Source of the DNA: a virus
Virus record (IMG/VR): IMGVR_UViG_3300047472_000037
Span: 2,502 to 66,501 of that record
DNA length: 64,000 bases
Reading direction: 5' to 3' (one strand)
Shown here piece after piece: positions 20,801 through 46,587 of this stretch; positions within the stretch are counted from its first letter, which is position 1, and every line of letters begins with the position of its first letter. The notes below the pieces were generated by a model. It was not told the DNA's origin, did no database searches, and worked only from the letters and a program-made list of their open reading frames with translations. Position numbers and translations under genes: made by a program.

Positions 20801-20954
20801 GGACATCCGGGCACAAGCAGTAATTGAGGGTCGTGCCACTAATCGTACGGCCCTTCGTCGTTTCGTGAAGAACGATGGTCGTAGGAGATTGGCAGAAGAA
20901 TTCACCTCAAGCAGGGGAGTGACCTATGAGCGATGGGCCAAACAAGATGAATGA
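20790..20954 (+). CDS. Small basic protein starting inside tail copy 1
   Basis: MISEDIRAQAVIEGR... Confidence 0.45.
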   Translation: MISEDIRAQAVIEGRATNRTALRRFVKNDGRRRLAEEFTSSRGVTYERWAKQDE

Positions 20955-21246
20955 ACCCCTTCCAGTCGGTACTGAGGTAGTCCTCATCAACAATCAGGAT
21001 GGATTACTTCCCGGTAGTCGTGGGGTCATCAGAGGTATTCAACCATCTGGATTTTACTCGGTATATGTAACACACTCTGTTAGTCCTACTTGGTATGGAC
21101 ATGGTTCTGGTGGTGAAGGTGATTACATAGATCCCCATTCGAGGAAATCCAGAGGGTGGAACGTAGACCCCAAGAATCTTAAAGAATACTTCCTGGAAAT
21201 TCCCTACGATCCAACTCAACAGGCTGACCAAGATGACGACATTTGA
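20947..21246 (+). CDS. Small tailed protein (copy 2)
   Basis: LPVGTEV N-terminus; ends EIPYDPTQQADQDDDI. Confidence 0.7.
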   Translation: MNEPLPVGTEVVLINNQDGLLPGSRGVIRGIQPSGFYSVYVTHSVSPTWYGHGSGGEGDYIDPHSRKSRGWNVDPKNLKEYFLEIPYDPTQQADQDDDI

Positions 21247-21463
21247 GCGGAAAGCGTTTACAAATGTTTATTGGAGTAAATCTCTTCTCGTCTTGATGAA
21301 CAAAGGTACTTATTCAACAGAAGAACTGGCAAAGAAGAACGTAAAAGATGACGAGGACCTAATCTATCAGGACTCAGTCTCTTGTCAGATCCAATGGACC
21401 TACAAAGGTTCTATAACAAAGGAAAAGGTTAATGAACAATCTGTCTCTACTTCTGTGGCTTAG
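21233..21463 (+). CDS. Hypothetical protein
   Basis: Start codon lies within tail copy 2. Confidence 0.5.
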   Translation: MTTFERKAFTNVYWSKSLLVLMNKGTYSTEELAKKNVKDDEDLIYQDSVSCQIQWTYKGSITKEKVNEQSVSTSVA

Positions 21464-21818
21464 TGATGTAGTGGGATCTGCCAAGGTTGCTCTTACGATC
21501 CTATCAGTATGTCTTGGATTAGCTCTCGTCTTTGGTACTGTAATACTGTTTTGTACTAAGGACGATGCGATTAGTAATCCAGCTAGTGATTACTGCCGAC
21601 AAGCCTATAGGGCAGTAAAAATACCCTACACATTTGCTATGATCGTTTGGATACTGGCAGGGATTATAAACATTATGTTGCCCACTAGTAATACTATCCG
21701 GTTGATTGCAGGAACGCAAGTAGGTGAACAGGTGGCAACCACTCCAGAGGCAAAGCAAATCTTTGGGAAAGTAGTTCAAGCACTCAATGTGCAATTGGAT
21801 AAACTAGGGAAGGAATGA
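21432..21818 (+). CDS. Membrane protein
   Basis: Two TM helices; AAGG SD. Confidence 0.65.
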   Translation: MNNLSLLLWLSDVVGSAKVALTILSVCLGLALVFGTVILFCTKDDAISNPASDYCRQAYRAVKIPYTFAMIVWILAGIINIMLPTSNTIRLIAGTQVGEQVATTPEAKQIFGKVVQALNVQLDKLGKE

Positions 21819-21822
21819 ACAG

Positions 21823-22011
21823 ATGTTCTATGTATGGATTCTTTGCTGTTTCCTTCTGTATGCTTATCTACTCTATCAAGAGTGGACCTACAGAAAGAAC
21901 TTGACCCTATTCGATTTTCTCTTTTTTGGCTTTCTGAGTTTCTCAGGACCAATCGGAATCATCGTAGTCATTGTGGCTTTTTTGTATGTGATATTAGTGG
22001 ATGAGAGTTGA
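21823..22011 (+). CDS. Small membrane protein
   Basis: 62 aa, highly hydrophobic; AAGGA SD. Confidence 0.55.
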   Translation: MFYVWILCCFLLYAYLLYQEWTYRKNLTLFDFLFFGFLSFSGPIGIIVVIVAFLYVILVDES

Positions 22012-22043
22012 ACTAATTGGTTTGTAGTTCTAATTTGAGTTTA

Positions 22044-22072
22044 ATTATAGCACGTATTTGGAGCTAAGTCAA
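22044..22072 (-). promoter_or_regulatory. Antisense sigma70 promoter
   Basis: Minus strand TTGACT-N17-TATAAT with TG extension. Confidence 0.6.
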
Positions 22073-22073
22073 G

Positions 22074-22361
22074 ATGTCACAGGAACAAACGTTTCATATA
22101 GGTGATCTTGTAACAGTAGAAGAAAGGGGTGGTGAACTAATATGGGATGGTACCATATACCGTTTTGGTCATTCTGATCATTTTCTTGTTACTTGTTCAG
22201 ACACATCATTTACTGACATTTATCCGAACTATTTCCACACTGATGATCACAGACTCTCTACTCGATGTGGTAAGTATGTCCATAAGATGTATTTGAAAAT
22301 TCGTCTTGATGAACTCCCATATGATCCCACTCAGCAACCCGATGAGGATGACGATGTATAA
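22074..22361 (+). CDS. Small tailed protein (copy 3)
   Basis: FHIGDLV...ELPYDPTQQPDEDDDV. Confidence 0.7.
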   Translation: MSQEQTFHIGDLVTVEERGGELIWDGTIYRFGHSDHFLVTCSDTSFTDIYPNYFHTDDHRLSTRCGKYVHKMYLKIRLDELPYDPTQQPDEDDDV

Positions 22362-22695
22362 TGAACGGATCGTGGAAATCCCAGATGGTCGAGTTGTACT
22401 CCCTGAGTTCTTTTCTGTCGGTGATATCTTCTATGGCCAATGGTTTGGTGTTAATCAATCAGATAACTACTGGCATGGTCCGTACTGTGTTAAATCTTTC
22501 TTCCGTGATGGACAAAAAGGTCGCATGACCTGTTCTGTGGTTGAAGATAACGAGGTGGGTCCTGTAATGAATGAACTTACGGGACAATCAGACCTCTGTG
22601 TTATGTCTTATCCCATCCGAAGGGTTAAGTTTATGACACCTTTCATGATTGAATATGATCCCAAGCAACAGAGGGATGAAGAAGATGACATCTGA
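22354..22695 (+). CDS. Small tailed protein (copy 4)
   Basis: Starts inside copy 3 (MYNER); FSVGDIF; ends IEYDPKQQRDEEDDI. Confidence 0.7.
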   Translation: MYNERIVEIPDGRVVLPEFFSVGDIFYGQWFGVNQSDNYWHGPYCVKSFFRDGQKGRMTCSVVEDNEVGPVMNELTGQSDLCVMSYPIRRVKFMTPFMIEYDPKQQRDEEDDI

Positions 22696-22958
22696 AAGTG
22701 ATTGGGAACCTGTGGAGGTAGAGCAATTCCAGAGAGGGGATAAGATCAGTACGGAAAGTGGTTTAAGGGGGGGGTTACTATCATCACATTGATTTTATAA
22801 GAGGGGCTAATATTTATTATACAGCTTATTGTGATAAACTTCCCTCTTTTACATCAAATGCCCAGGTAAGTATTTTCAAAACTTCTAATTGGCTCCGTTT
22901 TGTAGACTTCAAACCATATGATCCTAAACAAATGCCAGACCAAGAGGATGATATATGA
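22685..22958 (+). pseudogene. Small tailed protein (copy 5) frameshifted at a G8 tract
   Basis: MTSESDW..FQRGDKI; G8 at 22767-74; one G fewer gives a 90-aa ORF ending KPYDPKQMPDQEDDI. Confidence 0.7.
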
Positions 22959-23233
22959 CTGACGAAAAGAAGATGGTCCGTAAAGAAGAAACTTTTCGCT
23001 ACATTGAGACGACCCTGTCTGAGGTGAAAAAGAAAATAGATTCTTGGATAGAACAGTATGGTCCTGATGCATATTTCCTTGCTGATGAGGAATATGGGAA
23101 CCCTGTAGTACTTATCAGCTACGAGAGATTGGAGACAGAAGGGGAATTCCAATCCCGCATAGAATATGAAACACGGAAGAAATCTCGTCGACAGGCAGAG
23201 TTCCTGAAGATGAAGAAAGAATTCGAAGGTTAA
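22955..23233 (+). CDS. Hypothetical protein
   Basis: ATGA-coupled to tail copy 5. Confidence 0.65.
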   Translation: MTDEKKMVRKEETFRYIETTLSEVKKKIDSWIEQYGPDAYFLADEEYGNPVVLISYERLETEGEFQSRIEYETRKKSRRQAEFLKMKKEFEG

Positions 23234-23241
23234 CTCTTCAT

Positions 23242-23316
23242 TCTCCTTTAGTTTAATTGGCAAAACGTGTGCCTTTGGTGCATGAGATCCAGGTTCGACC
23301 CCTGGCGGGAGATCCA
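23242..23316 (+). tRNA. tRNA-Gln (TTG) with encoded CCA
   Basis: Acceptor TCTCCTT/CGGGAGA (one mismatch), D arm GTTT/AAAC, anticodon loop CTTTGGT, T arm CCAGG-TTCGACC-CCTGG, then T-CCA. Confidence 0.85.
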
Positions 23317-23414
23317 ATAGTCATTTAAACGGCCATAGAAGCTCACTGAGAGCATCCGTTAATCTTTCCGCACCTCACATCCACTTATCATCAACCATTC
23401 TGTATAGGTCTCTA

Positions 23415-24065
23415 ATGAACCACAATAGCGTACCGACCACGTGCACTGCATCTCTCATCACAGGATGGGATATCCCCGGCGTTAATGAAAAGGACGAGAA
23501 GACTCGCCTTAAGACTTGGGATCGTGCTCTTGCTTCTCTTATTTCCTCTGGATACAAGCGGGACTTCGCCATCATCCATGTCTTCACTACTGGTAAACAG
23601 AAGGTTGATGATTTCCTCAAGGCCATCGGTTTCGAAATGGTATTCCATGGTTCTAAGGCAGATGACGAGAGTGTCCAGAGACATCAGGAAACTGGTGATC
23701 TTTTCTTGTGGGCCATCAAGCCTAAGGATTACCAAGAGGGTATCACTAAGCTAAAGGCAGAAATCAAGACTCGATTGGAAGTTATCGATCCCCCTAAGCA
23801 TCCTGATCCTAAGCGCCTCGCTATGCCTGAACTAAAGTTGAGGGCACTTCAGAAGGCAGGGTTTGCCCTAGAGAATGCAAGGGTCGATAACCGTTTCAGT
23901 GATGTTGTCGTAGGTGATCCTGTAGTGGTCGCTAAGTTCATGAAGCTAACTTATGGTTGGGATGTTGTAGTTTTCTGTAAGGCCAATAACTACCCTGAAT
24001 GGACCCGTCTGACCACACGCAAACTGAAAGACCTTCACAATCAATGGCGGAATGAGCTGATCTAA
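23415..24065 (+). CDS. Hypothetical protein at the head of the amidoligase cluster
   Basis: 216 aa; TAATG coupling. Confidence 0.65.
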   Translation: MNHNSVPTTCTASLITGWDIPGVNEKDEKTRLKTWDRALASLISSGYKRDFAIIHVFTTGKQKVDDFLKAIGFEMVFHGSKADDESVQRHQETGDLFLWAIKPKDYQEGITKLKAEIKTRLEVIDPPKHPDPKRLAMPELKLRALQKAGFALENARVDNRFSDVVVGDPVVVAKFMKLTYGWDVVVFCKANNYPEWTRLTTRKLKDLHNQWRNELI

Positions 24066-24727
24066 TGGTGAAGACAACTCCCCGAACTAAGAATAGAGTC
24101 TATGTCGTAGGTTACGATCCTCCTGTCACTAAGATGTGGTTCAGGAGAGAATATGAGATTATGAGTAACCCGGAGTTGGCTGACATCCTCTGCTTCATTG
24201 GTGGATGGGATATCGACCCTGAACTCTATGGGGAAAAGCCAATCAAGGGTACTCGTATTCAACCGGCTGATGATGTCCGTGACACTCGTGCATGGGAACG
24301 TTCCATGTCTATGAGCAAACGTGGGCAACTCAAGGTGGGTATCTGCCGTGGCGGTCAGTTCCTAAATGTATCTAACGACGGTAAAATGTATCAACATGTC
24401 ACAGGTCATTCGAGTGATCATAAGATGTACGATACATTGTTCCGTGATACTAACCCTATTGATGTAACCTCTTCTCACCACCAGATGATGGTTCCTACAG
24501 ATAGTGCAGAGATCATAGGATATTCTGAAGGTATCTCTAGTGAGTTTTGGACACAAGCAGGCAAACTAGAAGTTAAACCTGAGATTGAACCAGAGGTTCT
24601 GTACTACGAGAACTCCCGTAGCCTCTGTTTCCAAGGTCATCCTGAGTGGAATCTTCGTAATCCCAAGGATGGGAACTATGATACCTGTCGGGATTATTTC
24701 TTTAAGATTATGGATATGATTCGATGA
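24065..24727 (+). CDS. Class I glutamine amidotransferase / peptidase C26 (gamma-glutamyl hydrolase-like)
   Basis: GGWDIDP, GICRGGQ nucleophile elbow, SSHHQ, QGHPE. Confidence 0.88.
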   Translation: MVKTTPRTKNRVYVVGYDPPVTKMWFRREYEIMSNPELADILCFIGGWDIDPELYGEKPIKGTRIQPADDVRDTRAWERSMSMSKRGQLKVGICRGGQFLNVSNDGKMYQHVTGHSSDHKMYDTLFRDTNPIDVTSSHHQMMVPTDSAEIIGYSEGISSEFWTQAGKLEVKPEIEPEVLYYENSRSLCFQGHPEWNLRNPKDGNYDTCRDYFFKIMDMIR

Positions 24728-25623
24728 ATGAAATAGCTCAAACTGCAATGAAAGCCTCTCTACCCTTGAGTGGACGTTCTTTTGTTCTCGTTACTGAACA
24801 TGAAGATAGAAGAGTCGAGTATCATATCAGGCAGAGACAACCGTGTTGGGGTGAACTCAGGAAGTACGAGAGGTCCCATCCTACTCGTTGCACTCAACCG
24901 AGTGTTAATAAGCCGGGTGATCTTCATCATCCATTTCCTGATGGTAAACCGATTGGTCTAGCTGTTAATGTCGATGTCAATTGGGACGGATACAAACCGC
25001 AGCTACCAGAGGACCACATGAAGTTCATCTTGGGTGATGAAAGTATCTATAAGTGTGGTATCGGGAAGACAGAAGTTCTATATGATGATAGAGGATTGCC
25101 TGATGCTATCTACTTTGATGGTTTGAATGTTGATCCTACTATTCTCGTGAACTTCCTCCGTACGATGGCGACTAGTACTATGTCAAATATAGTACAGGGA
25201 TACTTGGATGCTGGACTCTCTCGTAAAGAGGCTCAGGTTTTAGTCAAGCTGAATGGGTCTTATAGTATCAAGTCTGGTTATGTCGGCAGTGGTTATCCAC
25301 ATTCAGTCAGACGTGTATATCAGTCTGCTCCACATGATTTCTCTGGTGGTACTATGGAACAGAGGGTGGATTACAACCGTCCAATGCAAGATTACATCTT
25401 CCAGGCGAAAGTCAAGGGGGAAAGTTGGATTGATCTCTGTGAAATGGTAGGTATTCCGAAGTACGGAGCACGAGAACTCAATATGCAGAGTGTTATTATT
25501 CCCAAGGTCAAGGAAATCTTCAGGATAGTTGAAGAAAGACAGGATGATATTTCTCGTCCTAAGCATATCTGGACTACTAAAGGTGGTGTAAGTAATGAAA
25601 ATGAAGGTTGGGTTATCACATGA
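24724..25623 (+). CDS. Hypothetical protein in the amidoligase cluster
   Basis: 299 aa, ATGA-coupled on both sides. Confidence 0.7.
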   Translation: MNEIAQTAMKASLPLSGRSFVLVTEHEDRRVEYHIRQRQPCWGELRKYERSHPTRCTQPSVNKPGDLHHPFPDGKPIGLAVNVDVNWDGYKPQLPEDHMKFILGDESIYKCGIGKTEVLYDDRGLPDAIYFDGLNVDPTILVNFLRTMATSTMSNIVQGYLDAGLSRKEAQVLVKLNGSYSIKSGYVGSGYPHSVRRVYQSAPHDFSGGTMEQRVDYNRPMQDYIFQAKVKGESWIDLCEMVGIPKYGARELNMQSVIIPKVKEIFRIVEERQDDISRPKHIWTTKGGVSNENEGWVIT

Positions 25624-26459: not shown

Positions 26460-26479
26460 ATTAGGTATGGATCATGAAG

Positions 26480-26746
26480 ATGACATTTAGAGTGGGTGAT
26501 TGTGTTCGTTTAGCTACAGAGTCTGAGTGTGAGATGAACACCCCTCGTGAATTAAGGTCTAATAGGCTCGATAGGTATGATCAGAGTACAGTATTCACTG
26601 TGACTAAAGAACCAGATCGTTGCGGACTCATACATCTAACCACGAAAGGTGAAGAACCCTGTGTTGCCTTTGCTGGGAGATTTAGGCGGCGCATGGAACT
26701 CCCATATGATCCAACTCAGCAACCAGACGAGGATGACGATGTATAA
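26480..26746 (+). CDS. Small tailed protein (copy 6)
   Basis: MTFRVGDCV...ELPYDPTQQPDEDDDV. Confidence 0.72.
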   Translation: MTFRVGDCVRLATESECEMNTPRELRSNRLDRYDQSTVFTVTKEPDRCGLIHLTTKGEEPCVAFAGRFRRRMELPYDPTQQPDEDDDV

Positions 26747-26993: not shown

Positions 26994-27007
26994 CAGAAAG
27001 AAATAAA

Positions 27008-28144
27008 ATGTGTGGCTTGTGGGGTTGTATGGGTCCGGGTATTACCCGAGCGGACCTTAAGATTATTCGTGACCTTGGTATCTTTTCTCAGGTACGTGGT
27101 ATGGATGGTGCTGGTGTATACCAAATTCGTTCGAATGCACAGAAGGGGTGGAGGTCATATGAACAGTTGTACAAGACGTATGCAACATTCTCCGAGATGG
27201 TCCTTGAGATTGAGACGAAGCAACGTCGTCGTGATAAAGGGATGGAAGATATCCTCGACACTATTTCTATTGACATCTTTATGGGTCATGTACGTTGGGC
27301 TACGAAGGGTGGTACAGACTCCGCTCAGGCTCATCCTTATGCATACTCTACTCTTGTCGGTGCACACAACGGTACACTTCGGGATAAGAAGTACGAAGAC
27401 AATGTACGCACTGACTCTGATTTGATGTTCGAAGATGCTAATCGTCGTGGTCTAGAGACAGTCCTCAATGAACTCGACCCATGGTCGGCCTACGCCATCA
27501 CGGTGTATGATAAAGTTCAGAAGAGGATGTACTTCGCTCGTAACGATGATCGTCCATTGTTCTTTGCTGTCAACAAAAATCGTTCAGTTCTATATTGGGC
27601 ATCAGAGAAGAAGATGCTTGAGTATGTCTTGGACAGGAATAATGAACTCAGTAACTGTTCACTCCATGAGTTGATCTCTGGTTTGTTGGTCTATGTTGAT
27701 CCCACTGAGATGACATATCGGGTGATTCAAGACAAACCCAAAACGATCTTTCATGGCAGGGAACTACACCCAAAGAAAAAGAATACTCACTATGCTGGCA
27801 ACCACAAGAACCACACTGATGTAGATGATTACTGGTCTAACTGGACCAAGAAGAAATTCGAGAAGAAAGAAGAAGAAGTAAAGGTCGTAGAAGTACAAGC
27901 GGAGGTAGACGATAACGTCGTCCCGTTTTCAGGAGGAACTAAAATCACCTCCTCCCTTCGTTCCTATCACGCCGCCTGTGAGTGTGGAAAACAAAGACTC
28001 AATCTCCTTCAAATCAGTCAGGCAATACGAGGAAAGTCTCAACAGTTCAAGTCTAATACCGAAGGTGATAAATTTTTCTGTATGGCTTGCACTAATGATT
28101 CTAATCGTAATGATGACAATAATAGCCAGACGGTGATGGCCTAA
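27008..28144 (+). CDS. Class II (Ntn) glutamine amidotransferase (paralog 1)
   Basis: N-terminal MCG, RGMDGAG, GHVRWAT, HPY, AHNGTL, TDS. Confidence 0.88.
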   Translation: MCGLWGCMGPGITRADLKIIRDLGIFSQVRGMDGAGVYQIRSNAQKGWRSYEQLYKTYATFSEMVLEIETKQRRRDKGMEDILDTISIDIFMGHVRWATKGGTDSAQAHPYAYSTLVGAHNGTLRDKKYEDNVRTDSDLMFEDANRRGLETVLNELDPWSAYAITVYDKVQKRMYFARNDDRPLFFAVNKNRSVLYWASEKKMLEYVLDRNNELSNCSLHELISGLLVYVDPTEMTYRVIQDKPKTIFHGRELHPKKKNTHYAGNHKNHTDVDDYWSNWTKKKFEKKEEEVKVVEVQAEVDDNVVPFSGGTKITSSLRSYHAACECGKQRLNLLQISQAIRGKSQQFKSNTEGDKFFCMACTNDSNRNDDNNSQTVMA

Positions 28145-28422
28145 TGTTTAAGATTGGTGATCAAGTAAGATTAGTCAGGGCAGTGGACTATCTTTATACG
28201 GGATCAGAGGGTGTTATTCTTGAACCGTGTGAGTTTCTGAAGGATTACCAATGGGTGATCAGGATAACCAAGAGTATAAAAGGTAGTACAAAAGGCCATT
28301 ATTGTGATGGACGTGTTCCTGGAGGTGGTGGTTATTTCGTTAGAGAGTCTGCCTTAGAGAAGATCAATATTGAACTCCCATACGACCCCAAGCAACAGAG
28401 GGATGAAGAAGATGACATTTAG
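28144..28422 (+). CDS. Small tailed protein (copy 7)
   Basis: MFKIGDQV...ELPYDPKQQRDEEDDI. Confidence 0.72.
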   Translation: MFKIGDQVRLVRAVDYLYTGSEGVILEPCEFLKDYQWVIRITKSIKGSTKGHYCDGRVPGGGGYFVRESALEKINIELPYDPKQQRDEEDDI

Positions 28423-28672
28423 AGTGGGTGATGAAGTCATCTATGAGGGTTTAGGTCCTCAAGCATATCCAGCATGGAGAGACAGTACCGGAATCATACT
28501 GTCAAATTGGAATAGAATGATGAAGGTGAAGTGGACAGGAGGACCAGTCTTAAAAGGTCGCCTTGAATCTTACCATATATCCACCCATTTCCCACACAAC
28601 CTTAAACTCCTAACTCCAAAAGAATTACCGTATGATCCTGCACAGCAACCTGATCAAGAGGATGATGTTTAA
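28412..28672 (+). CDS. Small tailed protein (copy 8)
   Basis: MTFRVGDEV...ELPYDPAQQPDQEDDV. Confidence 0.72.
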   Translation: MTFRVGDEVIYEGLGPQAYPAWRDSTGIILSNWNRMMKVKWTGGPVLKGRLESYHISTHFPHNLKLLTPKELPYDPAQQPDQEDDV

Positions 28673-29388: not shown

Positions 29389-29389
29389 G

Positions 29390-30010: not shown

Positions 30011-31035
30011 TGACTAACACAATTAGTACTGTCTTTGATATTCAAAAGTCTATCGGTCGTCCTTTCAAGGAGAGGCATACTGGTCTCTATGGTGTTGAGA
30101 TTGAGACAGAGACAGAAAGAAAATACGACTATCCTGCACTCCACTATTGGAACTGCGGAAAGGACAACAGTCTTCGTGATTGGGGAGTTGAGTACGTTCT
30201 GAAGGCCCCATTGAGTATTCCAGAACTAGAGAAAGCCTTTGAGGAATTCCGTCAGGCAGAAAAGAAGTATCGGTTCCGCCCTGAGAGTGTGAGTACTTCT
30301 GTCCACGTCCACACGAACATGCTCAATCAGACCTATCTGACTGTGGCAAACTACTTGACGACATGGCTTATGGTTGAACCTGTACTCATTCAGTACTCTG
30401 GTCCTGACCGTCTATCCAATCTCTTCTGTTTCGGGGTGAAGGATGCAGAAGGTATTCTTGATCATTGGGAGAAGTACGTCCAAGCATTGAACAGAAACAA
30501 TTTCAAGAGTTGCCCATCTGCTGAAGCGGTTAAGTACTCTGCCCTGAACATCGCCACCTTGCATACTCTAGGGACTGTTGAGGCTCGTTGCTTCCGTGGC
30601 GAAACTGATGTCAAGAAGATCGGGATTTGGATTGAACTCCTGAATAAAATCAAGGAGTTTTCTGCACGTCCTGGGATGACACCACCTAAGATTCTCGAAC
30701 TCTACAATAAGAACCGGGAAGGTATCATCGATATAATCTTTATAGAGTATGCCAAAGAGTTGAAGTGCAAAGATTATGAGAAGTTGATCACTCTCGATCA
30801 TCTGAAGTATGCATCTCGTATTGCAGCATCATCTAAGGACTGGACTCGTTTTGGTCTGGTGAAGGTTAAGGCAGTCTACAAGGAGATGGTCAAAGAAATC
30901 CTTGAACAAATCTCTCAGGAGATTACCAAAGGATCATTCGATCAACTACCATTCCATGAACGTCAATTGGTATATGAAATCTATCAGCGTCGTAACCCAA
31001 CATCTCGTATCGTAGATGAACTCGAAGATGTATAA
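30010..31035 (+). CDS. Putative amidoligase (GCS-fold, Amidoligase_2-like)
   Basis: YGVEIETE, DNSLR..GVEY, SVHVH, KYSALN, GTVEAR; ends DELEDV. Confidence 0.82.
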   Translation: MTNTISTVFDIQKSIGRPFKERHTGLYGVEIETETERKYDYPALHYWNCGKDNSLRDWGVEYVLKAPLSIPELEKAFEEFRQAEKKYRFRPESVSTSVHVHTNMLNQTYLTVANYLTTWLMVEPVLIQYSGPDRLSNLFCFGVKDAEGILDHWEKYVQALNRNNFKSCPSAEAVKYSALNIATLHTLGTVEARCFRGETDVKKIGIWIELLNKIKEFSARPGMTPPKILELYNKNREGIIDIIFIEYAKELKCKDYEKLITLDHLKYASRIAASSKDWTRFGLVKVKAVYKEMVKEILEQISQEITKGSFDQLPFHERQLVYEIYQRRNPTSRIVDELEDV

Positions 31036-31046: not shown

Positions 31047-31826
31047 ATGGCTGTTAAAGCAATGTTCGCATACAACTCTGGGTCCGAAGGTGCTCGTGAG
31101 TTGAAAACTGCAATGATGATTCCTATGATTAAACATCATGGTTCTTCATTTCGTCCGGGGGCAGAGAAAGTTATCCTCAATTGGGGGGCAACTACTGATC
31201 GTTACCCGGCTGCACTACTCAGTTGTCGGATTATCAATCACCCTACTCGTGTAGACTCAGCCGTAGATAAGGTCGCTACGTTCAATCTCTTTCGTGAACA
31301 TGGTGTATCCTCTCCTGAGTTCACAACGAGCAAGGCTGAGGCTATACGTTGGTGTGAGAGTGGTTCCACAGTATTTGCTCGTACTATTCTTCGTGCACAC
31401 TCTGGTCGTGGTATCGAGATCATGGACCCTGACCATCCTGATACACTTGATGTCAATGCCCCCCTGTATGTCAAGTACATTCCCAAGAAGTTCGAGTATC
31501 GTATCCATGTGATGAATGGTGAAGTGATTGACACTCAACGTAAGGGTCTTAAGGAAGAGTTCAAGGATCGTCCAAATGTCAACCATAAGATTCGTAATCT
31601 TGCTAATGGCTTTATTTACGTTCGGAACGACGGTCATGTGGTCCCAGAATGTGTGCGTAGTGTTGGCATCCACGCTGTTACTGCTCTCGGTCTTGACTTC
31701 GGGGCTGTGGACGTTATCTACAATCAACGAGAAAATAGGGCATACGCACTTGAGGTTAATACAGCCCCCGGTCTCTCTGGAACCACAGTCACGAACTACC
31801 GCGATGCCCTCGTCGCAAACTTTTAG
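31047..31826 (+). CDS. ATP-grasp ligase (RimK/YheC-like)
   Basis: LNWG, DKVATF, SGRGI, EYRIHV, LDFGAVD, LEVNTAPG. Confidence 0.88.
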   Translation: MAVKAMFAYNSGSEGARELKTAMMIPMIKHHGSSFRPGAEKVILNWGATTDRYPAALLSCRIINHPTRVDSAVDKVATFNLFREHGVSSPEFTTSKAEAIRWCESGSTVFARTILRAHSGRGIEIMDPDHPDTLDVNAPLYVKYIPKKFEYRIHVMNGEVIDTQRKGLKEEFKDRPNVNHKIRNLANGFIYVRNDGHVVPECVRSVGIHAVTALGLDFGAVDVIYNQRENRAYALEVNTAPGLSGTTVTNYRDALVANF

Positions 31827-31827
31827 T

Positions 31828-31878
31828 GAACTCCCATACGACCCTAAGCAACAGAGGGATGAAGAAGATGATATTTAA
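31828..31878 (+). repeat. Tail copy 9 (ELPYDPKQQRDEEDDI) in the +1 frame behind the ATP-grasp stop
   Basis: 48 of 51 nt identical to copy 7; differences are synonymous in the tail frame. Confidence 0.85.
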
Positions 31879-32122
31879 GGTGGGTGATCTTGTTTCTTAC
31901 GAAAATCCTGAAAGAGGATTACGGATGGGGAGGATCAAAGAGATCAGAGAGGAGTTTGGTACAACTAACATCTGGGCTAACTGGCAGCAAGCAAAAGATT
32001 TTTCAGAAGAATCTCTCTCCCGAACTTTTCTCAACATCCCTAACAAAGCACTCAAACATGTAGAACCACCTGAGCTACAATACGATCCGAAACAACAACC
32101 AGATGAAGAAGACGATATCTAA
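31868..32122 (+). CDS. Small tailed protein (copy 10)
   Basis: MIFKVGDLV...ELQYDPKQQPDEEDDI. Confidence 0.72.
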   Translation: MIFKVGDLVSYENPERGLRMGRIKEIREEFGTTNIWANWQQAKDFSEESLSRTFLNIPNKALKHVEPPELQYDPKQQPDEEDDI

Positions 32123-33180: not shown

Positions 33181-33832
33181 AGAATCATCTTTTGACATCC
33201 TCAAATTAGCGAACTCCAACACACCTGATTTCAATGATCTAAATGTAGGACCACTGGCAGAATATCCTGTATTCATTGTTGGTCAATTGAAGTCTGATGG
33301 TATTTACAACCAGATGCTAGAAGACTGTAAGTACTATGGTCCTGCCACTACGTGGGGTGAAGGTTTCATTCTTAAAGAAGGTCCCTTCGGTAACTACAAG
33401 TATACACCAGAGCCCTTAATATTTGAACTTGGATTAGACCCCAGGGAGAAACAGAAGACACTGAAAGAGTACGAGTCTGCAAGAGATATCAATTGGGAAC
33501 TAGCTGGTCGTCTACGTGGTGAAGTTTATGGAGTACCTCTCCGTACTCTCACTGCTCTAGATCGTTGGGAGAATAATAACGAAGATGCTCACAGAGAATG
33601 GAAGTATATCACCCTTGATAACCCTCTGAGTGACACCAATAGTTTGAGGGCTTACATTTGGCTTTCTGATTGGTCTAATTATGAGACATATTTCAAGAGT
33701 TACAAATCATTGGATTCATGCCCATTTCGTATGGAAAAGTCTGTAGGATCAAGTAAGATCCTTCGGTCTTATTATTTCCAACAACCAGAAATTATGTATG
33801 ATTATGCTGGACACTACGACGGAGATTATTAA
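33164..33832 (+). CDS. Divergent gamma-glutamylcyclotransferase-like protein
   Basis: VFIVGQLK, LRGEVYGV, LTALDRWE, AYIW. Confidence 0.6.
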   Translation: MTVQRKESSFDILKLANSNTPDFNDLNVGPLAEYPVFIVGQLKSDGIYNQMLEDCKYYGPATTWGEGFILKEGPFGNYKYTPEPLIFELGLDPREKQKTLKEYESARDINWELAGRLRGEVYGVPLRTLTALDRWENNNEDAHREWKYITLDNPLSDTNSLRAYIWLSDWSNYETYFKSYKSLDSCPFRMEKSVGSSKILRSYYFQQPEIMYDYAGHYDGDY

Positions 33833-34176
33833 TGGCTAAATTTCAAATTGGGGATTATGTAGAGTACACCAATAAGACATATCCAGATGGACCAGTTCGT
33901 GGAGAGATCATCGGTATTAACTCACGGTATGACCCACACTATTTGATCCACGATACTTCTGGTCGTAATCATTATATATCCAGATGGTCTAATATGTTGC
34001 CCGGAGAACCCACTCACGTCTTTAATAAAACCTTCTATGCACCAGATCCTTACAATAATAATCTATTCAGGTCAAATGCTCGTTGTTTTCGAGTCTCTGT
34101 GGGTTCTCGTAACATTAGGAGTATGGAAATGAGGTATGATCCAAAACAAATGCCGGATGAAGAAGATGACATATGA
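33832..34176 (+). CDS. Small tailed protein (copy 11)
   Basis: FQIGDYV...EMRYDPKQMPDEEDDI. Confidence 0.72.
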   Translation: MAKFQIGDYVEYTNKTYPDGPVRGEIIGINSRYDPHYLIHDTSGRNHYISRWSNMLPGEPTHVFNKTFYAPDPYNNNLFRSNARCFRVSVGSRNIRSMEMRYDPKQMPDEEDDI

Positions 34177-34435
34177 TGTAGGAGACGTAATTACTTATCG
34201 TTCTGACAATTACAGTGAGAAGTATAAGGTAGAGGCAATAGAACAACCATATGAAGGTCAAGTAGAACAGAGAATTAATATCAGTGTCATTGAAGTTGGA
34301 GGAGAGAAACAAGAACTACCTAGAAATGCAGGGTGGTTGACTATCTCTGTATTTAAGGGTTGTAATTACTCTGTTGAAAAGTTTGAACTCCCCTATGATC
34401 CCATGCAACAACCTGACGAAGAAGATGATATCTAG
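34166..34435 (+). CDS. Small tailed protein (copy 12)
   Basis: MTYDVGDVI...ELPYDPMQQPDEEDDI. Confidence 0.72.
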   Translation: MTYDVGDVITYRSDNYSEKYKVEAIEQPYEGQVEQRINISVIEVGGEKQELPRNAGWLTISVFKGCNYSVEKFELPYDPMQQPDEEDDI

Positions 34436-36360: not shown

Positions 36361-36416
36361 AGATACATATTAATGGTTATATTTTACTGGGATTTATTAT
36401 TTGTTCGATCTTGATC

Positions 36417-39530: not shown

Positions 39531-39550
39531 TGAAAGATAGGTAGACTAGA

Positions 39551-40288: not shown

Positions 40289-40305
40289 CAAAAAGGAATA
40301 AGATC

Positions 40306-40974: not shown

Positions 40975-40982
40975 GAGATAGT

Positions 40983-41192: not shown

Positions 41193-41944
41193 GGACATTA
41201 CTTATCGACGGTGATATTCTTTCCTACCAATGTGCAATCTTTAATGAAGTAGCAACAGAAATAGAACCTGGATACTGGGTTTGGCACTGTGAATTCGGTA
41301 AGGTCATCGACAGTATCAACTGGCAGATTTCTACCTACATGAAACGACTGGAAGCTGACAACTTCATCCTTTGTTTAACTGATAATGACAAGAACTTCAG
41401 AAAAGATATTTTAAGCACGTACAAAGGGAACAGGAGTAACCTTAAAAGACCTCTTGTTCTAAAGCCCACTCGCGAATACCTTATTAAGGAATTGGATGCG
41501 AGGATCACTCCCGGTTTAGAGGGGGATGATCTTATGGGAATTCTCTCCACAGAAGAAACTGATGATGAACGGATTATCGTATCTATCGATAAGGACTTGA
41601 AGACAATCAATGGTAAGTACTATAATCCGAATGCAGATGTAGTCGTAGAGATTACAGAAGAAGAAGCTGATTGGTGGCACCTATATCAAACACTAACTGG
41701 TGACACTATCGACGGATACAGTGGTTGTCCCTCCATTGGTGCTGTAACAGCCAAGAAGATACTTGATGAGAGTCCTACTTGGGATGCTGTCATCAAGACG
41801 TACAAGAAGAAGGGACTGACAGAAGAAGATGCTTTAGTTCAAGCTCGTGTAGCTCGAATACTGAGATCCTCTGATATCGATAATGAGGGTAATCCAATCC
41901 TCTGGACACCGAAGGAGGACAACAATAAAAAAGAAACTTCCTAA
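41189..41944 (+). CDS. 5'-3' exonuclease (T7 gp6-like)
   Basis: LIDGD, YKGNR, LEGDD, DKDL, GDTIDGYSG. Confidence 0.9.
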   Translation: MRTLLIDGDILSYQCAIFNEVATEIEPGYWVWHCEFGKVIDSINWQISTYMKRLEADNFILCLTDNDKNFRKDILSTYKGNRSNLKRPLVLKPTREYLIKELDARITPGLEGDDLMGILSTEETDDERIIVSIDKDLKTINGKYYNPNADVVVEITEEEADWWHLYQTLTGDTIDGYSGCPSIGAVTAKKILDESPTWDAVIKTYKKKGLTEEDALVQARVARILRSSDIDNEGNPILWTPKEDNNKKETS

Positions 41945-42356
41945 AATCGGAAAAAGGATCGTTAAAAACTCTTCGGAATACGAATGCTATAAGAAGATTG
42001 AAGCCATGCTTCCAAAGGATATGACAGTCTCATATGAAACGGATAAGCTTCAATACACAACGACACATACGTACCTTCCCGACTTCACGATTAGATTTCA
42101 GAAGTCTGACGGTATTCATGCCCTTCTGGAATATAAAGGGAATGGCCGAGCATTCGATAATACTGTTAGACAGAAAATGATTGCAGTTAAACAACAATAC
42201 CCTGAACACACTTTTTATATTGTCTTCCACTCAGATGGAAAGATCGGCCCTAAACGAAAGGATGGTTCTTTCCTTAAACAATCCGATTGGGCGAAAAAGT
42301 ATGGTTTTGAGTATTGTATAGGAAGGGATAACATCCCGGAATCCTGGTTTCTTTAA
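41925..42356 (+). CDS. Endonuclease I / Holliday junction resolvase (T7 gp3-like), probable ATA start
   Basis: YE..K..Y....TYLPDF, LEYKG, WAKKYGF; AAGGAGG 6 nt before ATA. Confidence 0.82.
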   Translation: MKKKLPKIGKRIVKNSSEYECYKKIEAMLPKDMTVSYETDKLQYTTTHTYLPDFTIRFQKSDGIHALLEYKGNGRAFDNTVRQKMIAVKQQYPEHTFYIVFHSDGKIGPKRKDGSFLKQSDWAKKYGFEYCIGRDNIPESWFL

Positions 42357-42546
42357 GAGAAAGTTAATTTATGAATACTTATGTTGTCATGCGTGCTGGT
42401 GGTGAAACTGGCACTACAATTGATGCTGATCATTTTATGGTTGACCCATCGGGTACTCTCTATCTTTTCAAGGGTGACATCATCGTCTCTGCTCATAACG
42501 GTTGGGAAGACATCGTTCTAACATATGATGACCGGGAGGTATCTGA

Positions 42547-43311
42547 ATGAGTGAAACTTATCTAATCCTTCCTGATCAGCACGCCGTGAGTTATCACAAC
42601 AATGATCGTGCAGACTGGGCAGCTCAACTTATTATCGACATCAGGCCAACGGTCGTGATTAATATGGGTGATGCTGTAGACCTTGAGTCCCTGAGTTCTT
42701 ATGACAAAGGTAAGAGGGCATTCCAAGGTAGATCCTATAAGAACGATCTAAATGCACATCTTGATTTCCAAGAACGTCTTTGGGAACCTTTGAAGAGGCA
42801 GAAGAAGAAACTCCCTCATCGAGTATTCCTCGAAGGTAATCATGAAAATCGAATTGAACGTGCACTAGACCTTTCTCCTGAACTAGCTGGTACTATCGGG
42901 TTTGAAGACTTCCAGTTCGATAAGTACTATGATGAAGTCATCCGATATGATGGTGGTCTTCCGGGTATCTACAAGAGGGATAATATCCTCTTTGCCCACT
43001 TCTTCCCAACAGGTATCTCAGGACGTCCTATCGGTGGAGAACGACCAGCTCATATGCTTCTGGCTAAGAATGGTATGTCCTCTATCGCTGCTCATAGCCA
43101 CACACTTGATTATGCCACTCGTAGAACCATCGCTGATGAATATCAGAACGGACTAGTAGTTGGTTGTTATCAAGACTTCGTTAACCCATGGGCTGGTCCC
43201 ATCGGCAAGTTCTGGCAAGCAGGTATTCCTGTCCTCCGGAATGTAGAAAACGGTGGATTTGACTTCGAATGGATTAGCATTAAATCCCTACAGAAAGAAT
43301 ACGGAAAGTAA
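42547..43311 (+). CDS. Calcineurin-like metallophosphoesterase
   Basis: PDQH, MGD..D, GNHE, AHSH. Confidence 0.85.
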   Translation: MSETYLILPDQHAVSYHNNDRADWAAQLIIDIRPTVVINMGDAVDLESLSSYDKGKRAFQGRSYKNDLNAHLDFQERLWEPLKRQKKKLPHRVFLEGNHENRIERALDLSPELAGTIGFEDFQFDKYYDEVIRYDGGLPGIYKRDNILFAHFFPTGISGRPIGGERPAHMLLAKNGMSSIAAHSHTLDYATRRTIADEYQNGLVVGCYQDFVNPWAGPIGKFWQAGIPVLRNVENGGFDFEWISIKSLQKEYGK

Positions 43312-43312
43312 A

Positions 43313-43552
43313 ATGACACTCAGGGCCACGTTAGAAATTATCCCATTTGGTGATGAAACTAAAGCAAGAGAAATAGTTGTATTGAATATCAGTAACGTTA
43401 CGTTTAAAGAGGGACGTGGCCCTAATGGCGAAGATACTTATGTCGTAGAGGTCAATGATTATAAGAACTATGACTCTAATACAAAGAGGATCTTTCACAA
43501 GAGAGAAGATGGAGCAGTTGCCCTAGTGGAGAAGGCGTGTCGAAATGTCTGA
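43313..43552 (+). CDS. Hypothetical protein
   Basis: MTLRATLEIIPFG... Confidence 0.55.
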   Translation: MTLRATLEIIPFGDETKAREIVVLNISNVTFKEGRGPNGEDTYVVEVNDYKNYDSNTKRIFHKREDGAVALVEKACRNV

Positions 43553-44027
43553 TAGAGATATCTGGTGGGTAAAAGATTACCTCACGTACAAAGATGGCCA
43601 TCTTTACTGGATAAAATGTGATGCCCCCTGGGTTGATATAACACAACCAGCAGGACATATTAGAAAAGATGGATATTTAGCTATAGGATTCAAGGGTAAG
43701 AATTACTTAGGACATCAGCTAATCTGGTTTTTGTGTTATAGAGAGGTAGCTGATCTCCTGGATCACATAGATAGAAACCCCAGTAATAATAGAATTGAAA
43801 ATCTGCGACGAGCTGATAAAAGATTGAATAGCTTGAATAGAGATGCCCCTAGTAATTCTAAATCTGGAAAAGCTGGTGTATCGTGGGATAGCGCAAGGAA
43901 TAAATGGACAGTTAGGTGGAAAGAAACTAGTGGGAAATATTCTTTCCTTGGCTATTTCGAAGACCTTAACACTGCCATTGAAGTTAGAACTCGAAAAGAA
44001 CAGGAGGTACTGGGCGATGGGAAATAA
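43545..44027 (+). CDS. HNH homing endonuclease with AP2-like domain
   Basis: DHIDRNPSNNRIENLR; SGKAGVSW..W...LGYF. Confidence 0.85.
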   Translation: MSDRDIWWVKDYLTYKDGHLYWIKCDAPWVDITQPAGHIRKDGYLAIGFKGKNYLGHQLIWFLCYREVADLLDHIDRNPSNNRIENLRRADKRLNSLNRDAPSNSKSGKAGVSWDSARNKWTVRWKETSGKYSFLGYFEDLNTAIEVRTRKEQEVLGDGK

Positions 44028-44521
44028 TATCTTTCTTATCTCAGACACTCACTTTCAATCATTCCAATATCATCAAGTATTGTGATCGTCCGTTCAAAGA
44101 TACAAAAGAAATGGATTGGACAATGGTAGAAAATTGGAACAAGGTAGTTAAGCCACAAGATAAGGTTTATCACTTGGGTGATGTTTACATGGGTGCCACA
44201 AGGGGATATATCGAGAATATATTACAGCATCTTAATGGACATAAGAGGTTGATCCTAGGTAACCATGACAATGGGAAGGATCAAGTCCTTCAGAGATATT
44301 TCGAAAAGATCGATGTCTGGAGGATGTTCCCTGAGTTTGGACTTCTTTTGACCCATGTTCCTGTTCATGAAAGTACTCTAGACAGAGGTATGGGGAAAGA
44401 ACTTCTTAACGTTCACGGACATATCCATAACAAGGAGTCTCCTACTTCTAACCATTATAATGTTTCTGTTGAGATGATCGACTACACCCCAATCAATATA
44501 GAGAATGTACGAATTCGTTAA
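44017..44521 (+). pseudogene. Metallophosphoesterase split by a +1 frameshift at 44053-44055
   Basis: MGNNIFLISDTHF then, in the +1 frame, NHSNIIKYCDRPF...HLGD...GNHD...HGHIH. Confidence 0.75.
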
Positions 44522-44703
44522 TGAGTGATACTGATACAAAGTTTAAACATTCTAAGAAGCGCAATATTATGGCAAAGCATCTTAGGGATCAAGGTGATTA
44601 TAAAGGTGCCTATGCTATAAAGATTATTGATCCACGAAAAGAAGAATATAAGAGAAAGCATATGAGAGTGAGTGATATTGTAAATGATGAAAACGAGTAT
44701 TGA
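44521..44703 (+). CDS. Hypothetical basic protein
   Basis: TAATG coupling. Confidence 0.5.
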   Translation: MSDTDTKFKHSKKRNIMAKHLRDQGDYKGAYAIKIIDPRKEEYKRKHMRVSDIVNDENEY

Positions 44704-45026
44704 GGACTGGCTAGAGAGGGAGCTAGAGAAAAAAGACTTTGAAACGATCCTAGAAGATTTCGATCTTGATCCGTATACAGTGTTCTGGTTGTTATTTCAA
44801 AATGGATTGATCGATGAAGAATTGATTGAATTGGAAGTAGATTGAATACTACAGACAGCTATACAATCAAGTACCCCCTCGAAGTATTTGAAGAGTGGTT
44901 GGAAGAGAGGGCTATGGAGGATGGTATCTTCTATGGTAACGGAAGAATTTCCATAACTAACATCACCTTCGACGATGTGAATGCATATGTCATAATTGAA
45001 GGTGAAATCTTACGGAGAATGGATTC

Positions 45027-45791
45027 ATGAACGCACATAAATTTTATACACTACTATCTGTCGGTGTCATTGGACTATCAGCCCTACTCTTCTTGGGCAA
45101 GGCTGTACGAGCAGACGAGGTAAGTACTTTTCAGAAACAAGCCGTGGACACTGTACTACAGTTGAATCGTAATTGTTCTGGTACTGTAGTTGATATTGGT
45201 GTTCCTTCGAGTACCTATATCCTTACTGCCAATCATTGCACGACAGAAGAAGCTGCTAATGATGCTCAGCGTGGTATGGTTTCTGTAGACGAGAAGGTAC
45301 ATGGCAAACTCATTAGTACTGAACTTCTTCCCTATGATGTAGTTGTCCGTGATACTGCCAAGGATCTGGCTATTGTAAAGGTTCGTAAGGAAGGTCTCTT
45401 TCTACCTACCGCTAAGATCGCCAAGGAAGATCCTAGGGAAGGCGAACAGGTCTGGACTATCGGGTATCCTCTAGGACTCACTAGAACCGTCACAGAGGGC
45501 CGTATGGGCGACTACGAGGCTATCAATAAGGATATGACCGCTGATAACTTCGGTGATGCTCCTGATGGTCGTGTAATGTACCGTGCTACTCCCGCCCTAT
45601 ATGGTGGTAACTCTGGTGGTGGTTTCTTCATTAAACGTAATGATGATTACCTTCTTGTTGGTGTATCTGACGCAGGCTTCCGTCAGTTCTTTGTTGCTGG
45701 TTATTATGTAACTCAGAGTGATGTGAATGACCTAGTCGGTCGTGCATTCAAAAAGACCGCTGAAATCGAACAGAAGAAGGCTAACGATTGA
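45027..45791 (+). CDS. Trypsin-like serine protease with N-terminal signal/TM segment
   Basis: LTANHC, DLA, IGYP, GNSGG catalytic triad motifs. Confidence 0.85.
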   Translation: MNAHKFYTLLSVGVIGLSALLFLGKAVRADEVSTFQKQAVDTVLQLNRNCSGTVVDIGVPSSTYILTANHCTTEEAANDAQRGMVSVDEKVHGKLISTELLPYDVVVRDTAKDLAIVKVRKEGLFLPTAKIAKEDPREGEQVWTIGYPLGLTRTVTEGRMGDYEAINKDMTADNFGDAPDGRVMYRATPALYGGNSGGGFFIKRNDDYLLVGVSDAGFRQFFVAGYYVTQSDVNDLVGRAFKKTAEIEQKKAND

Positions 45792-45917
45792 TGGCAGGAG
45801 AAATAATCTTCTCTGCATTCGGGGGATTCTTATTTGGTCTGATCCTTGGGTGTATGCTAACATCGATGGATGCCAAAGATCGTGAAATAAAGGGTTTGAA
45901 GAAAAGAGTTGGTGAAG

Positions 45918-46178
45918 ATGACTAAACTAACATTTACAACTGATGAGGATCATGTTCATACCTTCGAAGGTGAAGTGATGATCGATGGTAAGCTGGAGGG
46001 ATTTAGTATCCAGTTCACCAAGGAATTCCCAACGGGTAAAGATATTGGACACATGCTATATGCTGCTGCTAATCTGGCCAGTAGTAATCATTATGTAAAC
46101 CAGTATAATTCCATTGTAGACCTTCTAGAACAACTAGAGAAAGATCTAGAAGCGCTCAGTGGAGATAGTAATGGATGA
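45918..46178 (+). CDS. Hypothetical protein
   Basis: ORF in operon; start uncertain. Confidence 0.5.
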   Translation: MTKLTFTTDEDHVHTFEGEVMIDGKLEGFSIQFTKEFPTGKDIGHMLYAAANLASSNHYVNQYNSIVDLLEQLEKDLEALSGDSNG

Positions 46179-46298
46179 AGATAATGATCCACACTCGGAT
46201 GAATACTACTTCTATGCTGGCTGTTTGATTTCTGTCGGTATGGGGATACTGGTTGCTGTCTTCCTATACATGTTGAACAGTTTGTTGTAATCATATCA

Positions 46299-46329
46299 GC
46301 CCTCGTAGAGATACGGGGGTTTTTCTTTC
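46299..46329 (+). terminator. Intrinsic terminator
   Basis: GCCCTCGTA-GAGA-TACGGGGGT followed by TTTTCTTT. Confidence 0.78.
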
Positions 46330-46341
46330 TGAGGATTAAGA

Positions 46342-46587
46342 ATGTTTGAATCAGGTGATATTGTACAAGTGATCGTAGAGAGTTCTAGAACAGATTACGC
46401 TGGATATAAAGGGTTTTATGGTGAACATGTAAAGATTATAGCAGGACCATATGATGATGATTCTGTTCTAGTATCTATTTTGAATTCTGGTGAGAGTGCA
46501 GTCATGTATATAGATGAGATTGCTCAATTGGATTTTGAACTCCCATATGATCCAAAACAGATGCCAGACCAAGAGGACGATATTTGA
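46342..46587 (+). CDS. Small tailed protein (copy 13), outlier 12 kb from the cluster
   Basis: MFESGDIV...ELPYDPKQMPDQEDDI. Confidence 0.72.
   Translation: MFESGDIVQVIVESSRTDYAGYKGFYGEHVKIIAGPYDDDSVLVSILNSGESAVMYIDEIAQLDFELPYDPKQMPDQEDDI

Follow-up and report, generated by a model that had tools for sequence, protein, structure and literature searches.

The 64,000-nucleotide stretch analysed here (the window; positions 2,502 to 66,501 of the 66.5-kb IMG/VR virus record IMGVR_UViG_3300047472_000037) contains a set of small open reading frames (ORFs) on the plus strand, whose divergent products, here called mini-proteins, close with closely similar acidic C-terminal peptides. There are 13 such tails in the window, of which 12 fit a strict end pattern and the thirteenth lies on a GNAT acetyltransferase ending at 20800. 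The tailed ORFs are listed below; E-values refer to the mini-protein family profile described further on, unless a database is named.

20396-20800, plus strand: GNAT acetyltransferase (Pfam Acetyltransf_1, E 3.1e-6); tail PIPYDPNQQMVEDDDL
20947-21246, plus strand: T1 (motif LPVGTEV), alternative start at 20926; tail EIPYDPTQQADQDDDI; E 5.4e-7
22074-22361, plus strand: T2 (FHIGDLV); tail ELPYDPTQQPDEDDDV; E 7.4e-10
22348-22695, plus strand: T3 (FSVGDIF, about 20 residues in), start uncertain between 22342 and 22354; tail IEYDPKQQRDEEDDI; E 6.5, that is, not found by the profile
22685-22958, plus strand: T4 (FQRGDKI), a broken gene; tail KPYDPKQMPDQEDDI in the second frame
26480-26746, plus strand: T5 (FRVGDCV); tail ELPYDPTQQPDEDDDV; E 0.097
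28144-28422, plus strand: T6 (FKIGDQV); tail ELPYDPKQQRDEEDDI; E 2.6e-6
28412-28672, plus strand: T7 (FRVGDEV), start overlapping the tail of T6; tail ELPYDPAQQPDQEDDV; E 1.4e-9
31047-31878, plus strand: RimK-like ATP-grasp ligase (31047-31826; phrog_2599, E 5.1e-77) with a tail in the +1 frame
31868-32122, plus strand: T9 (FKVGDLV), start overlapping the tail that follows the ATP-grasp gene in the +1 frame; tail ELQYDPKQQPDEEDDI; E 1.6e-8
33832-34176, plus strand: T10 (FQIGDYV), the sole member with lineage-wide orthologues; E 1e-19
34166-34435, plus strand: T11 (YDVGDVI), start overlapping the tail of T10; tail ELPYDPMQQPDEEDDI; E 0.0039
46342-46587, plus strand: T12 (FESGDIV), 12 kb from the other mini-proteins and adjoining a glutaredoxin gene; tail ELPYDPKQMPDQEDDI; E 0.14

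The eleven N-terminal heptads reported in an initial annotation of this DNA were all found, on the plus strand and each in an ORF that closes with the tail. The x-x-G-D motif claimed for all eleven lies at the positions given, except that LPVGTEV carries T instead of D. T4 is split across two frames at a run of eight G residues (22767-22774), where one base more or fewer changes the reading, so that ten of the eleven mini-proteins, of 81-115 amino acids (aa), are intact; the run could be a sequencing error, a pseudogene lesion or a slippage site. Several start codons are ambiguous because they overlap the preceding tail. The ATP-grasp gene itself ends in AAC-TTT-TAG (31815-31826), and its +1 frame runs straight into an intact tail, SELPYDPKQQRDEEDDI; the ATP-grasp orthologues at two loci of relatives (L001 and L005) have separate tailed genes on either side instead.

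The tail is an acidic C-terminal peptide of 13-14 residues, Y-D-P-x-Q-x-x-D-x-acid-acid-D-I/V-COOH, with the window consensus E-L-P-Y-D-P-x-Q-[QM]-[PRA]-D-[EQ]-[ED]-D-D-[IV]-stop. The last residue is I, V or L in 13/13 window tails. In a collection of tailed small ORFs from relatives (148 distinct sequences, median 94.5 aa), the last residue is I in 137, V in 7 and L in 4, and Gln occupies position -9 in 147, counts that, like those for D-6 and D-2, are inflated because the collecting patterns required these residues. Conservation extends to Tyr, Pro, Gln and Gly/Pro; at -10, any of T, N, S, K, D and E occurs, and there is no conserved Ser, Thr or Lys in the tail.

The tail is selected as a protein and not only as a DNA signal. 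Specifically, over 14 codons of 12 tails the summed entropy is 4.96, 3.94 and 16.57 at codon positions 1, 2 and 3, and pairwise codon differences among the 12 tails are 368:220 (synonymous to non-synonymous) in frame versus 11:542 and 5:534 in the other two frames, ratios on which conservation purely at the DNA level was dropped as an explanation. The tail DNA is 71% identical between copies, while the 42 nt upstream are only 31% identical.

The tail DNA nevertheless has a second role in places, and an explanation without any reader in trans can be built on it, in which the tail DNA is a translational coupling signal and a recombination joint for gene cassettes and the peptide is a passenger or a solubility aid. 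Three tails have Arg (AGG) at -7, and these are the ones with an overlapping mini-protein gene after them; they use CAG-AGG-GAT-GAA-GAA-GAT-GAC-ATT (...CAGAGGGATGAAGAAGATGACATT), which gives a Shine-Dalgarno-like AGAGGG followed by the ATG of the next gene. A fourth overlap, from T10 to T11, does without AGG. In addition, a degenerate tail end, M-D-H-E-D-D-I-stop (26460-26490), is found immediately upstream of T5, overlapping the T5 start, and it looks like a relic copied along with a cassette. This explanation has to face the free third codon positions under a maintained peptide, the majority of tails that have no overlapping start after them, and the conserved Tyr, Pro, Gln and Gly/Pro, which solubility alone does not need. 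We regard it as highly improbable.

The cores upstream of the tail are divergent, and they can still be connected. The strict motif [FYWLIVM]xxGDx[VILF] occurs within the first 37 residues of 107 of the 148 tailed ORFs and of 2 of the 110 other ORFs in the window, so the association of N-terminal motif and tail exceeds chance. BLAST comparison of the ten intact window cores without their tails gives alignments over about the first dozen to 15 residues, the sole exception being T1 and T6 (E 1e-4). To this extent the description of the middles as barely alignable is borne out, but a profile built without the tails still links six of the ten. In particular, iterated profile searches on cores lacking the last 14 residues grew from the seeds T6, T7 and T10 to 83, 92 and 81 of the 148 sequences, respectively, while the seven other window seeds recruited none; the final profile holds 91 of the 148, and T10, T2, T7, T9, T1 and T6 all match it at E ≤ 3e-6. 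The best untailed ORF of the window reaches E 0.058. Pfam and PHROGs gave nothing above threshold for the ten mini-proteins, T6 has no relative besides itself among 5.8 billion proteins, and neither megablast of 6 kb of the window nor tblastn of T6 matched anything in the phage collection. Judged by these comparisons, the mini-proteins form one lineage-specific phage gene family with fast turnover.

T10 is the only mini-protein with orthologues detectable by BLAST (14 loci). The AlphaFold2 model of T10, from an 11-row alignment, is all-beta, with a predicted local distance difference test (pLDDT) score of 78.5 and a predicted template modelling (TM) score of 0.70. The last two 10-residue blocks have pLDDT values of 60 and 57, and the tail is therefore predicted to be disordered. 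In an exhaustive VIA search with the model, the ten top rows are SH3-like barrels, and the listed top matches have Z 6.6-5.0: CAP-Gly domains (6.6, 6.4, 6.2 and 6.0), Tudor (6.2), chromo (6.0), R67 DHFR (5.8) and the KOW domain of Spt5 (5.6). Foldseek returned nothing against PDB at E ≤ 0.1, and its weaker rows are again SH3-like barrels (CAP-Gly, L24-type ribosomal proteins, BAH, R67 DHFR and HspQ). The prediction for T10 is an SH3-like barrel whose tail is disordered.

For T12, the ESM Atlas model (pLDDT 0.62) has neighbours in a KOW cluster, NifZ and integrase SH3-like domains, at TM scores of 0.57-0.71 by query, a resemblance that we take as a lead only. T12 is also the only one of the ten scanned mini-proteins that matched Pfam KOW (PF00467), at 13.0 bits and E 0.095 against a cut-off of 22.3 bits. 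The single-sequence AlphaFold2 model of T5 (pLDDT 51.4) allows no fold conclusion. The structure prediction and Foldseek comparison that the initial annotation had proposed for all eleven came out in part: SH3-like top rows for T10 at Z ≤ 6.6, an uninformative T5, and no Foldseek match at E ≤ 0.1. Its assignment of the set to SH3/KOW-like barrels is supported for two mini-proteins and extended to five more by profile homology, with two of eleven folds examined with any confidence.

Tailed mini-proteins also occur in related phages. The DNA polymerase of the window has its nearest named relatives in RHph_N3_19, N3_13 and I3_11 (Rhizobium) and phiM6 (Sinorhizobium), at 61-66% amino acid identity, followed by PA11-like Pseudomonas phages at about 53%. 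The virion genes are on the minus strand at both window ends, and the mini-proteins belong to the plus-strand early/replication arm. RHph_N3_19 has 17 tailed ORFs ending in [FY]KYDPxQxGDTE[ED]DI. In phiM6 there are 14 tandem mini-proteins with the N-terminal motif and a different tail, Y[KR]xDQEPxE[DE]EExL (L031:2818-7423), and 5 of the 14 match the family profile at E < 1e-3. The phiM6 array encloses a GGCT gene, and its mini-proteins are annotated just as hypothetical proteins. A degenerate DNA pattern for the tail found 27 stretches on 15 IMG/VR contigs, six of them of 65.9-70.6 kb, with at most 14 exact matches per contig, and the T10-group profile found 45 proteins among 1.84 billion representatives. 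Inspection of 17 of these showed 14 small tailed proteins, along with 3 long repetitive proteins (P0026, P0038 and P0043), which were set aside as repeat artefacts.

Searches for closer relatives of the window phage gave little: protein P0020 was not found in viral contigs, the P-type tail pattern had no match in the metagenome collection, cluster look-up returned short contigs only, and a scan of viral contigs with the ATP-grasp protein returned one distant locus. Contigs binned into metagenome-assembled genomes (MAGs), namely L039/L041/L045 (one 67.9-kb contig of a MAG labelled Rhodovulum), L037, L043 and L044, hold 14, 3 and 5 tail matches and appear to be phages of the window-phage lineage, not host DNA.

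Each tail-bearing genome has 10-17 tailed mini-proteins and its own flavour of tail. The tails of one genome share an identity of 0.62-0.90, and the residues at -8, -7 and -5 are its signature; the window has P or R at -7 and E or Q at -5, and elsewhere G is found at -7 and T, R or K at -5. The cores, by contrast with their neighbouring genes, evolve much faster. In the pair L017 and L029, flanking genes are 97-100% identical at the protein level and the four shared mini-proteins 46.6, 87.9, 90.2 and 96.1%; in L028 versus L029, the flanks are 67-83% identical and the mini-proteins 43-52%. In the 46.6%-identical mini-protein (L017 reverse strand 2864-3163 versus L029 563-868), DNA identity falls to about 0.4 only within this one core and rises again where the tail is reached. 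With start and tail as its limits, the divergence looks like a cassette replacement, which also counts in favour of the recombination-joint explanation without a reader.

The tag is not confined to mini-proteins. It is found on unrelated folds: on the window GNAT, in the +1 frame behind the ATP-grasp gene, and on a DUF7448 protein of another contig:

L026:2382-2870: DUF7448 protein of 163 aa, tailed (PF24240, E 1.6e-23)

Furthermore, a scan of one genome per species found the tail pattern in three chromosomal Rhizobium genes as well as in phage-like contigs in MAGs. Two of the three encode histidyl-tRNA synthetase (HisRS) ending in ...AEDRKRA-x-SGFET-x-YDPAQAGDTDDDI, and the third encodes isoleucyl-tRNA synthetase (IleRS) ending in ...LPYNPDQQCDEEDDI (L040:4448-7450) in a housekeeping neighbourhood. 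With a relaxed pattern, 11 of 173 Rhizobium genomes have a match (nine HisRS, one IleRS and one 73-aa ORF), and the reversed-pattern control gave 0. The 73-aa ORF, in L085 (Rhizobium genome G172), ends in ...HKYDPTQAGDTEDDV and could belong to a prophage or be what remains of a phage. A search of 401 Rhizobiaceae genomes for the phiM6-type tail pattern gave no match.

L042:6026-7750 (R. binxianense chromosome), L038, L077-L084 and L087: tagged HisRS loci, with tail YDP[AT]Q[AP]GD[TD]DDD[IV]

Tagging is exceptional for HisRS: in a Rhizobiaceae sample, 1 of 30 loci is tailed, and the usual end is ...AAQAEDR[KR]RAG. When a tagged HisRS is compared with a close tail-less relative, homology stops exactly at the start of the tail. 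The tagged HisRS form one clade of 11 rows (support 98/87), comprising ten tagged members and one untagged member nested inside. GC content at third codon positions is 0.31-0.46 in the tag and 0.79-0.85 in the gene body, so that the codon use of the host tag is phage-like, and in sequence the host tail belongs to the G-D-T type, as do tails of RHph_N3_19 and of L012/L028. Synonymous to non-synonymous differences are 45:52 in the tag, 47:107 in the linker and 678:233 in the body; the constraint on the tag is only moderate. We read the HisRS tag as probably one clade-wide acquisition, captured from a phage by the host and kept through speciation. The peptide is kept here with no mini-protein gene downstream, which speaks against the tail being a coupling signal alone.

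These host copies bring a second explanation to the fore, in which the tail is a degron or processing signal through which a protease of host or phage would remove or cleave early proteins at a set time; on the host side, tagged synthetases would then shut down translation on infection (a guard, or abortive infection) or soak up the reader. Consistent with this explanation, the tag sits on unrelated folds in the early/middle arm, there are two independent host captures, both on essential aminoacyl-tRNA synthetases, and the HisRS copy has phage-like codon use, is of a phage tail type and has been kept through its clade. T10 also weakly resembles HspQ (5ycq), a Lon specificity factor, although at Foldseek E 0.75 this is a resemblance only. 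The moderate constraint on the host tag fits a degron less well, no protease is linked to the tag, and the bacterial C-terminal degrons known to us are non-polar, not acidic. One phage protease lies near T12, about 550 bases upstream:

45027-45791: trypsin-like peptidase (PF13365, E 1e-16); hydrophobic segment at the N terminus

RHph_N3_19 also has this peptidase, but no copy was detected in phiM6. For this reason and because of its hydrophobic segment it was dropped as a candidate tail reader; both points likewise count against it as the protease of a degron. We consider the degron explanation unlikely.

The genes among which the mini-proteins lie suggest a third explanation. In the window, the mini-proteins are interleaved with the genes of a known operon, which comprises a GGACT protein, the GNAT, a C26 peptidase, two COOH-NH2 ligases, two class-II amidotransferases, Amidoligase_2, the RimK-like ATP-grasp and a second GGACT-like gene. 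The COOH-NH2 ligase, Amidoligase_2, ATP-grasp and class-II amidotransferase that mark the phage gamma-glutamyl/peptide-bond operon are thus co-located here (PF14395, E 1.9e-7; PF12224, E 4.3e-8; PF13522, E 6.9e-13; phrog_3815, phrog_7469 and phrog_2599). The end of the amidoligase (window 31015-31035), ...RIVDELEDV, and that of its RHph_N3_19 orthologue, ...VVDLTEDV, are tail-like in being acidic with a hydrophobic last residue. Two genes of this region recur with the tails:

19980-20399, plus strand: gamma-glutamyl cyclotransferase-like gene (Pfam GGACT, E 1.1e-15), among tailed genes in 3/3 tail-bearing genomes compared
23415-24065, plus strand: conserved 216-aa protein of no known family, adjoining mini-proteins and present in 3/3 tail-bearing genomes compared; not detected in TC6

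In this explanation, the tail would be a substrate of the neighbouring amide-bond enzymes (the RimK-like ATP-grasp, COOH-NH2 ligases, amidoligase, class-II amidotransferases, C26 hydrolase and gamma-glutamyl cyclotransferases), with residues added or removed at its carboxylates or its invariant glutamine, in parallel with RimK acting on ribosomal protein S6 and with tubulin tail ligases. The ATP-grasp matches a PHROG annotated as 'ribosomal protein S6 glutaminyl transferase'. Asp and Glu abound in the tail, which almost always has the glutamine at -9 (subject to the inflation noted above), and tailed genes lie interspersed among those of the module in the window and in RHph_N3_19, and directly beside the module in phiM6. 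The non-structural genes common to the three tail-bearing genomes and not detected in the PA11-like phage TC6 include both GGACT-like genes, the second amidotransferase and the 216-aa protein. TC6, however, has the module with single copies of the ligase, amidoligase, ATP-grasp and amidotransferases, and its ORF ends showed no C-terminal motif that recurs; the module therefore does not need tails. In phiM6, moreover, the 14 mini-proteins are one tandem block with the enzymes not interleaved, and host HisRS and IleRS are tagged in genomes where no module was seen, the module not having been searched for there. RimK extends a Glu-Glu C terminus with glutamates, whereas 13/13 window tails end in Ile, Val or Leu, and a RimK substrate proper was rejected on this basis. 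On balance, we find it quite unlikely that the tail is such a substrate.

The 216-aa protein is a candidate partner of the mini-proteins. Two of its features are invariant, a basic stretch rich in proline, IDPPK[KH]PDPKR, and H...C near the N terminus. The protein gave no Pfam or PHROG match; a profile search of PDB reached a best E of 0.32, and Atlas rows were all below 0.85 by features, with TM below 0.35. A predicted complex of the 216-aa protein with T10 scored 0.30 (mark 0.32), in a run made without controls, and this score weighs neither way on binding.

Taken together, our tentative preference, which we place somewhat short of an even chance, is for one common reader of the tag combined with diversified binding modules. 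In such a system, each mini-protein would be a small N-terminal SH3-like beta-barrel (KOW-, Tudor- or CAP-Gly-like) opened by the F-x-x-G-D-x-V strand, and the acidic C-terminal peptide would be an autonomous, transferable recognition tag. The tag would be read in trans by one common partner, to which the carrier protein would be tethered or addressed; the barrels would provide diversified binding surfaces, and the tag would give the mini-proteins and a few enzymes the same destination. We infer both that a single reader exists and that the barrels bind different targets. The proposal of the initial annotation, a constant handle on a variable module, agrees with the fold of T10, the lead from T12, the fast cores and the protein-level conservation of the tail; it sits less well with the same tail on enzymes, HisRS and IleRS. 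An adaptor library of substrate receptors is one form of the common-reader system and compatible with it, but since enzymes and host synthetases carry the tag, a general address or fate tag is at least as likely as a substrate-receptor handle.

Several observations weigh against a common reader with diversified barrels. No reader of the tail was found. T3, T5 and T12 are below profile detection and T11 is marginal (0.004), so that T3, T5 and T12, together with the broken T4, are linked to the family by the short N-terminal motif and the tail alone. One fold alone, that of T10, is predicted with fair confidence, and none of its structural matches reaches Z 8, a level below which a match may mean a mere common arrangement. 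In 4-5 places, the tail DNA includes the ribosome-binding site and the start codon of the gene that follows, and part of the tail conservation could be at the DNA level because of this. The genome-specific tails could stem from recent duplication or gene conversion instead of co-evolution with a reader. Finally, the identity of the reader is pulled in two directions. The tails of phiM6 and RHph_N3_19, whose hosts belong to the related genera Sinorhizobium and Rhizobium, clearly differ, which is awkward for a conserved host reader and argues for a co-evolving, phage-encoded one. That host HisRS has kept the tail, in turn, fits poorly with a purely phage-encoded reader and favours either a decoy or guard function in infection or a reader encoded by the host. 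A more far-reaching version, namely a phage peptide-address system with a single lineage-specific reader, whose tag a clade of the host genus has copied onto essential tRNA synthetases as a decoy or suicide guard, is in our estimate unlikely to hold.

Shared short tags are the way in which cells address many proteins to one machine. The tag described here covers 10-17 fast-evolving early proteins per genome, varies by genome, moves between folds and has entered host HisRS and IleRS. It offers a simple experimental handle on otherwise orphan early phage proteins, and it could help explain the adjoining peptide-bond operon, which has long been unexplained. If the host copies are defensive, bacteria would have a new means of exploiting an addressing signal that belongs to the phage itself, and if the decoy or guard reading is true, phage and host would be in an arms race whose object is a transferable linear motif. 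The genome note on phiM6 (PMC6256558) makes no mention of a shared tail or a mini-protein family, nor do the portions consulted of PMC3890496, PMC6209634 and PMC4819975, and the tail strings occurred nowhere in the relevant literature searched. A shared terminal tag on a multigene family is a known principle; its soluble, acidic phage version was not found in the texts searched.

Among known systems, the peptide-bond operon of LUZ24-, PA11-, phiRIO-1- and phiEco32-like podoviruses is present in the window with the mini-proteins inside it, in contrast to the operon of TC6, which is without tails. Graspetides and Pup-like tags were also considered and rejected. [quoted passage not shown]

On the side of the barrels, CAP-Gly, Tudor and KOW domains are the best structural matches of the T10 model, with the difference that all have Z < 8 and that no Pfam match reaches threshold. 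CAP-Gly domains have a glycine-rich GKNDG signature and bind acidic C-terminal EEY/F tails. T10 is without GKNDG and was not assigned to them, the resemblance being confined to Z 6.0-6.6; by analogy, head-to-tail contacts between barrels and acidic tails are conceivable.

On the side of the tag, LPXTG/sortase and PEP-CTERM/exosortase signals have a membrane-spanning helix and act at the envelope. The phage tag differs in being soluble, acidic, predicted to be disordered and phage-encoded; the likeness is that many unrelated or divergent proteins of one genome have the same portable short tag. SspB-type adaptors combine a substrate-binding domain with a short C-terminal peptide by which they are tethered to ClpX. 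Compared with these, the mini-proteins have no sequence or profile relation that we could see, their tail is acidic and has 13-14 residues, there are 10-17 paralogues per genome, the phage tag is also on enzymes and host synthetases, and we know of no protease partner. SspB, with a small folded domain joined through a flexible linker to a short conserved peptide at the C terminus that would serve for docking to a common machine, is nevertheless the nearest bacterial parallel to the adaptor idea.

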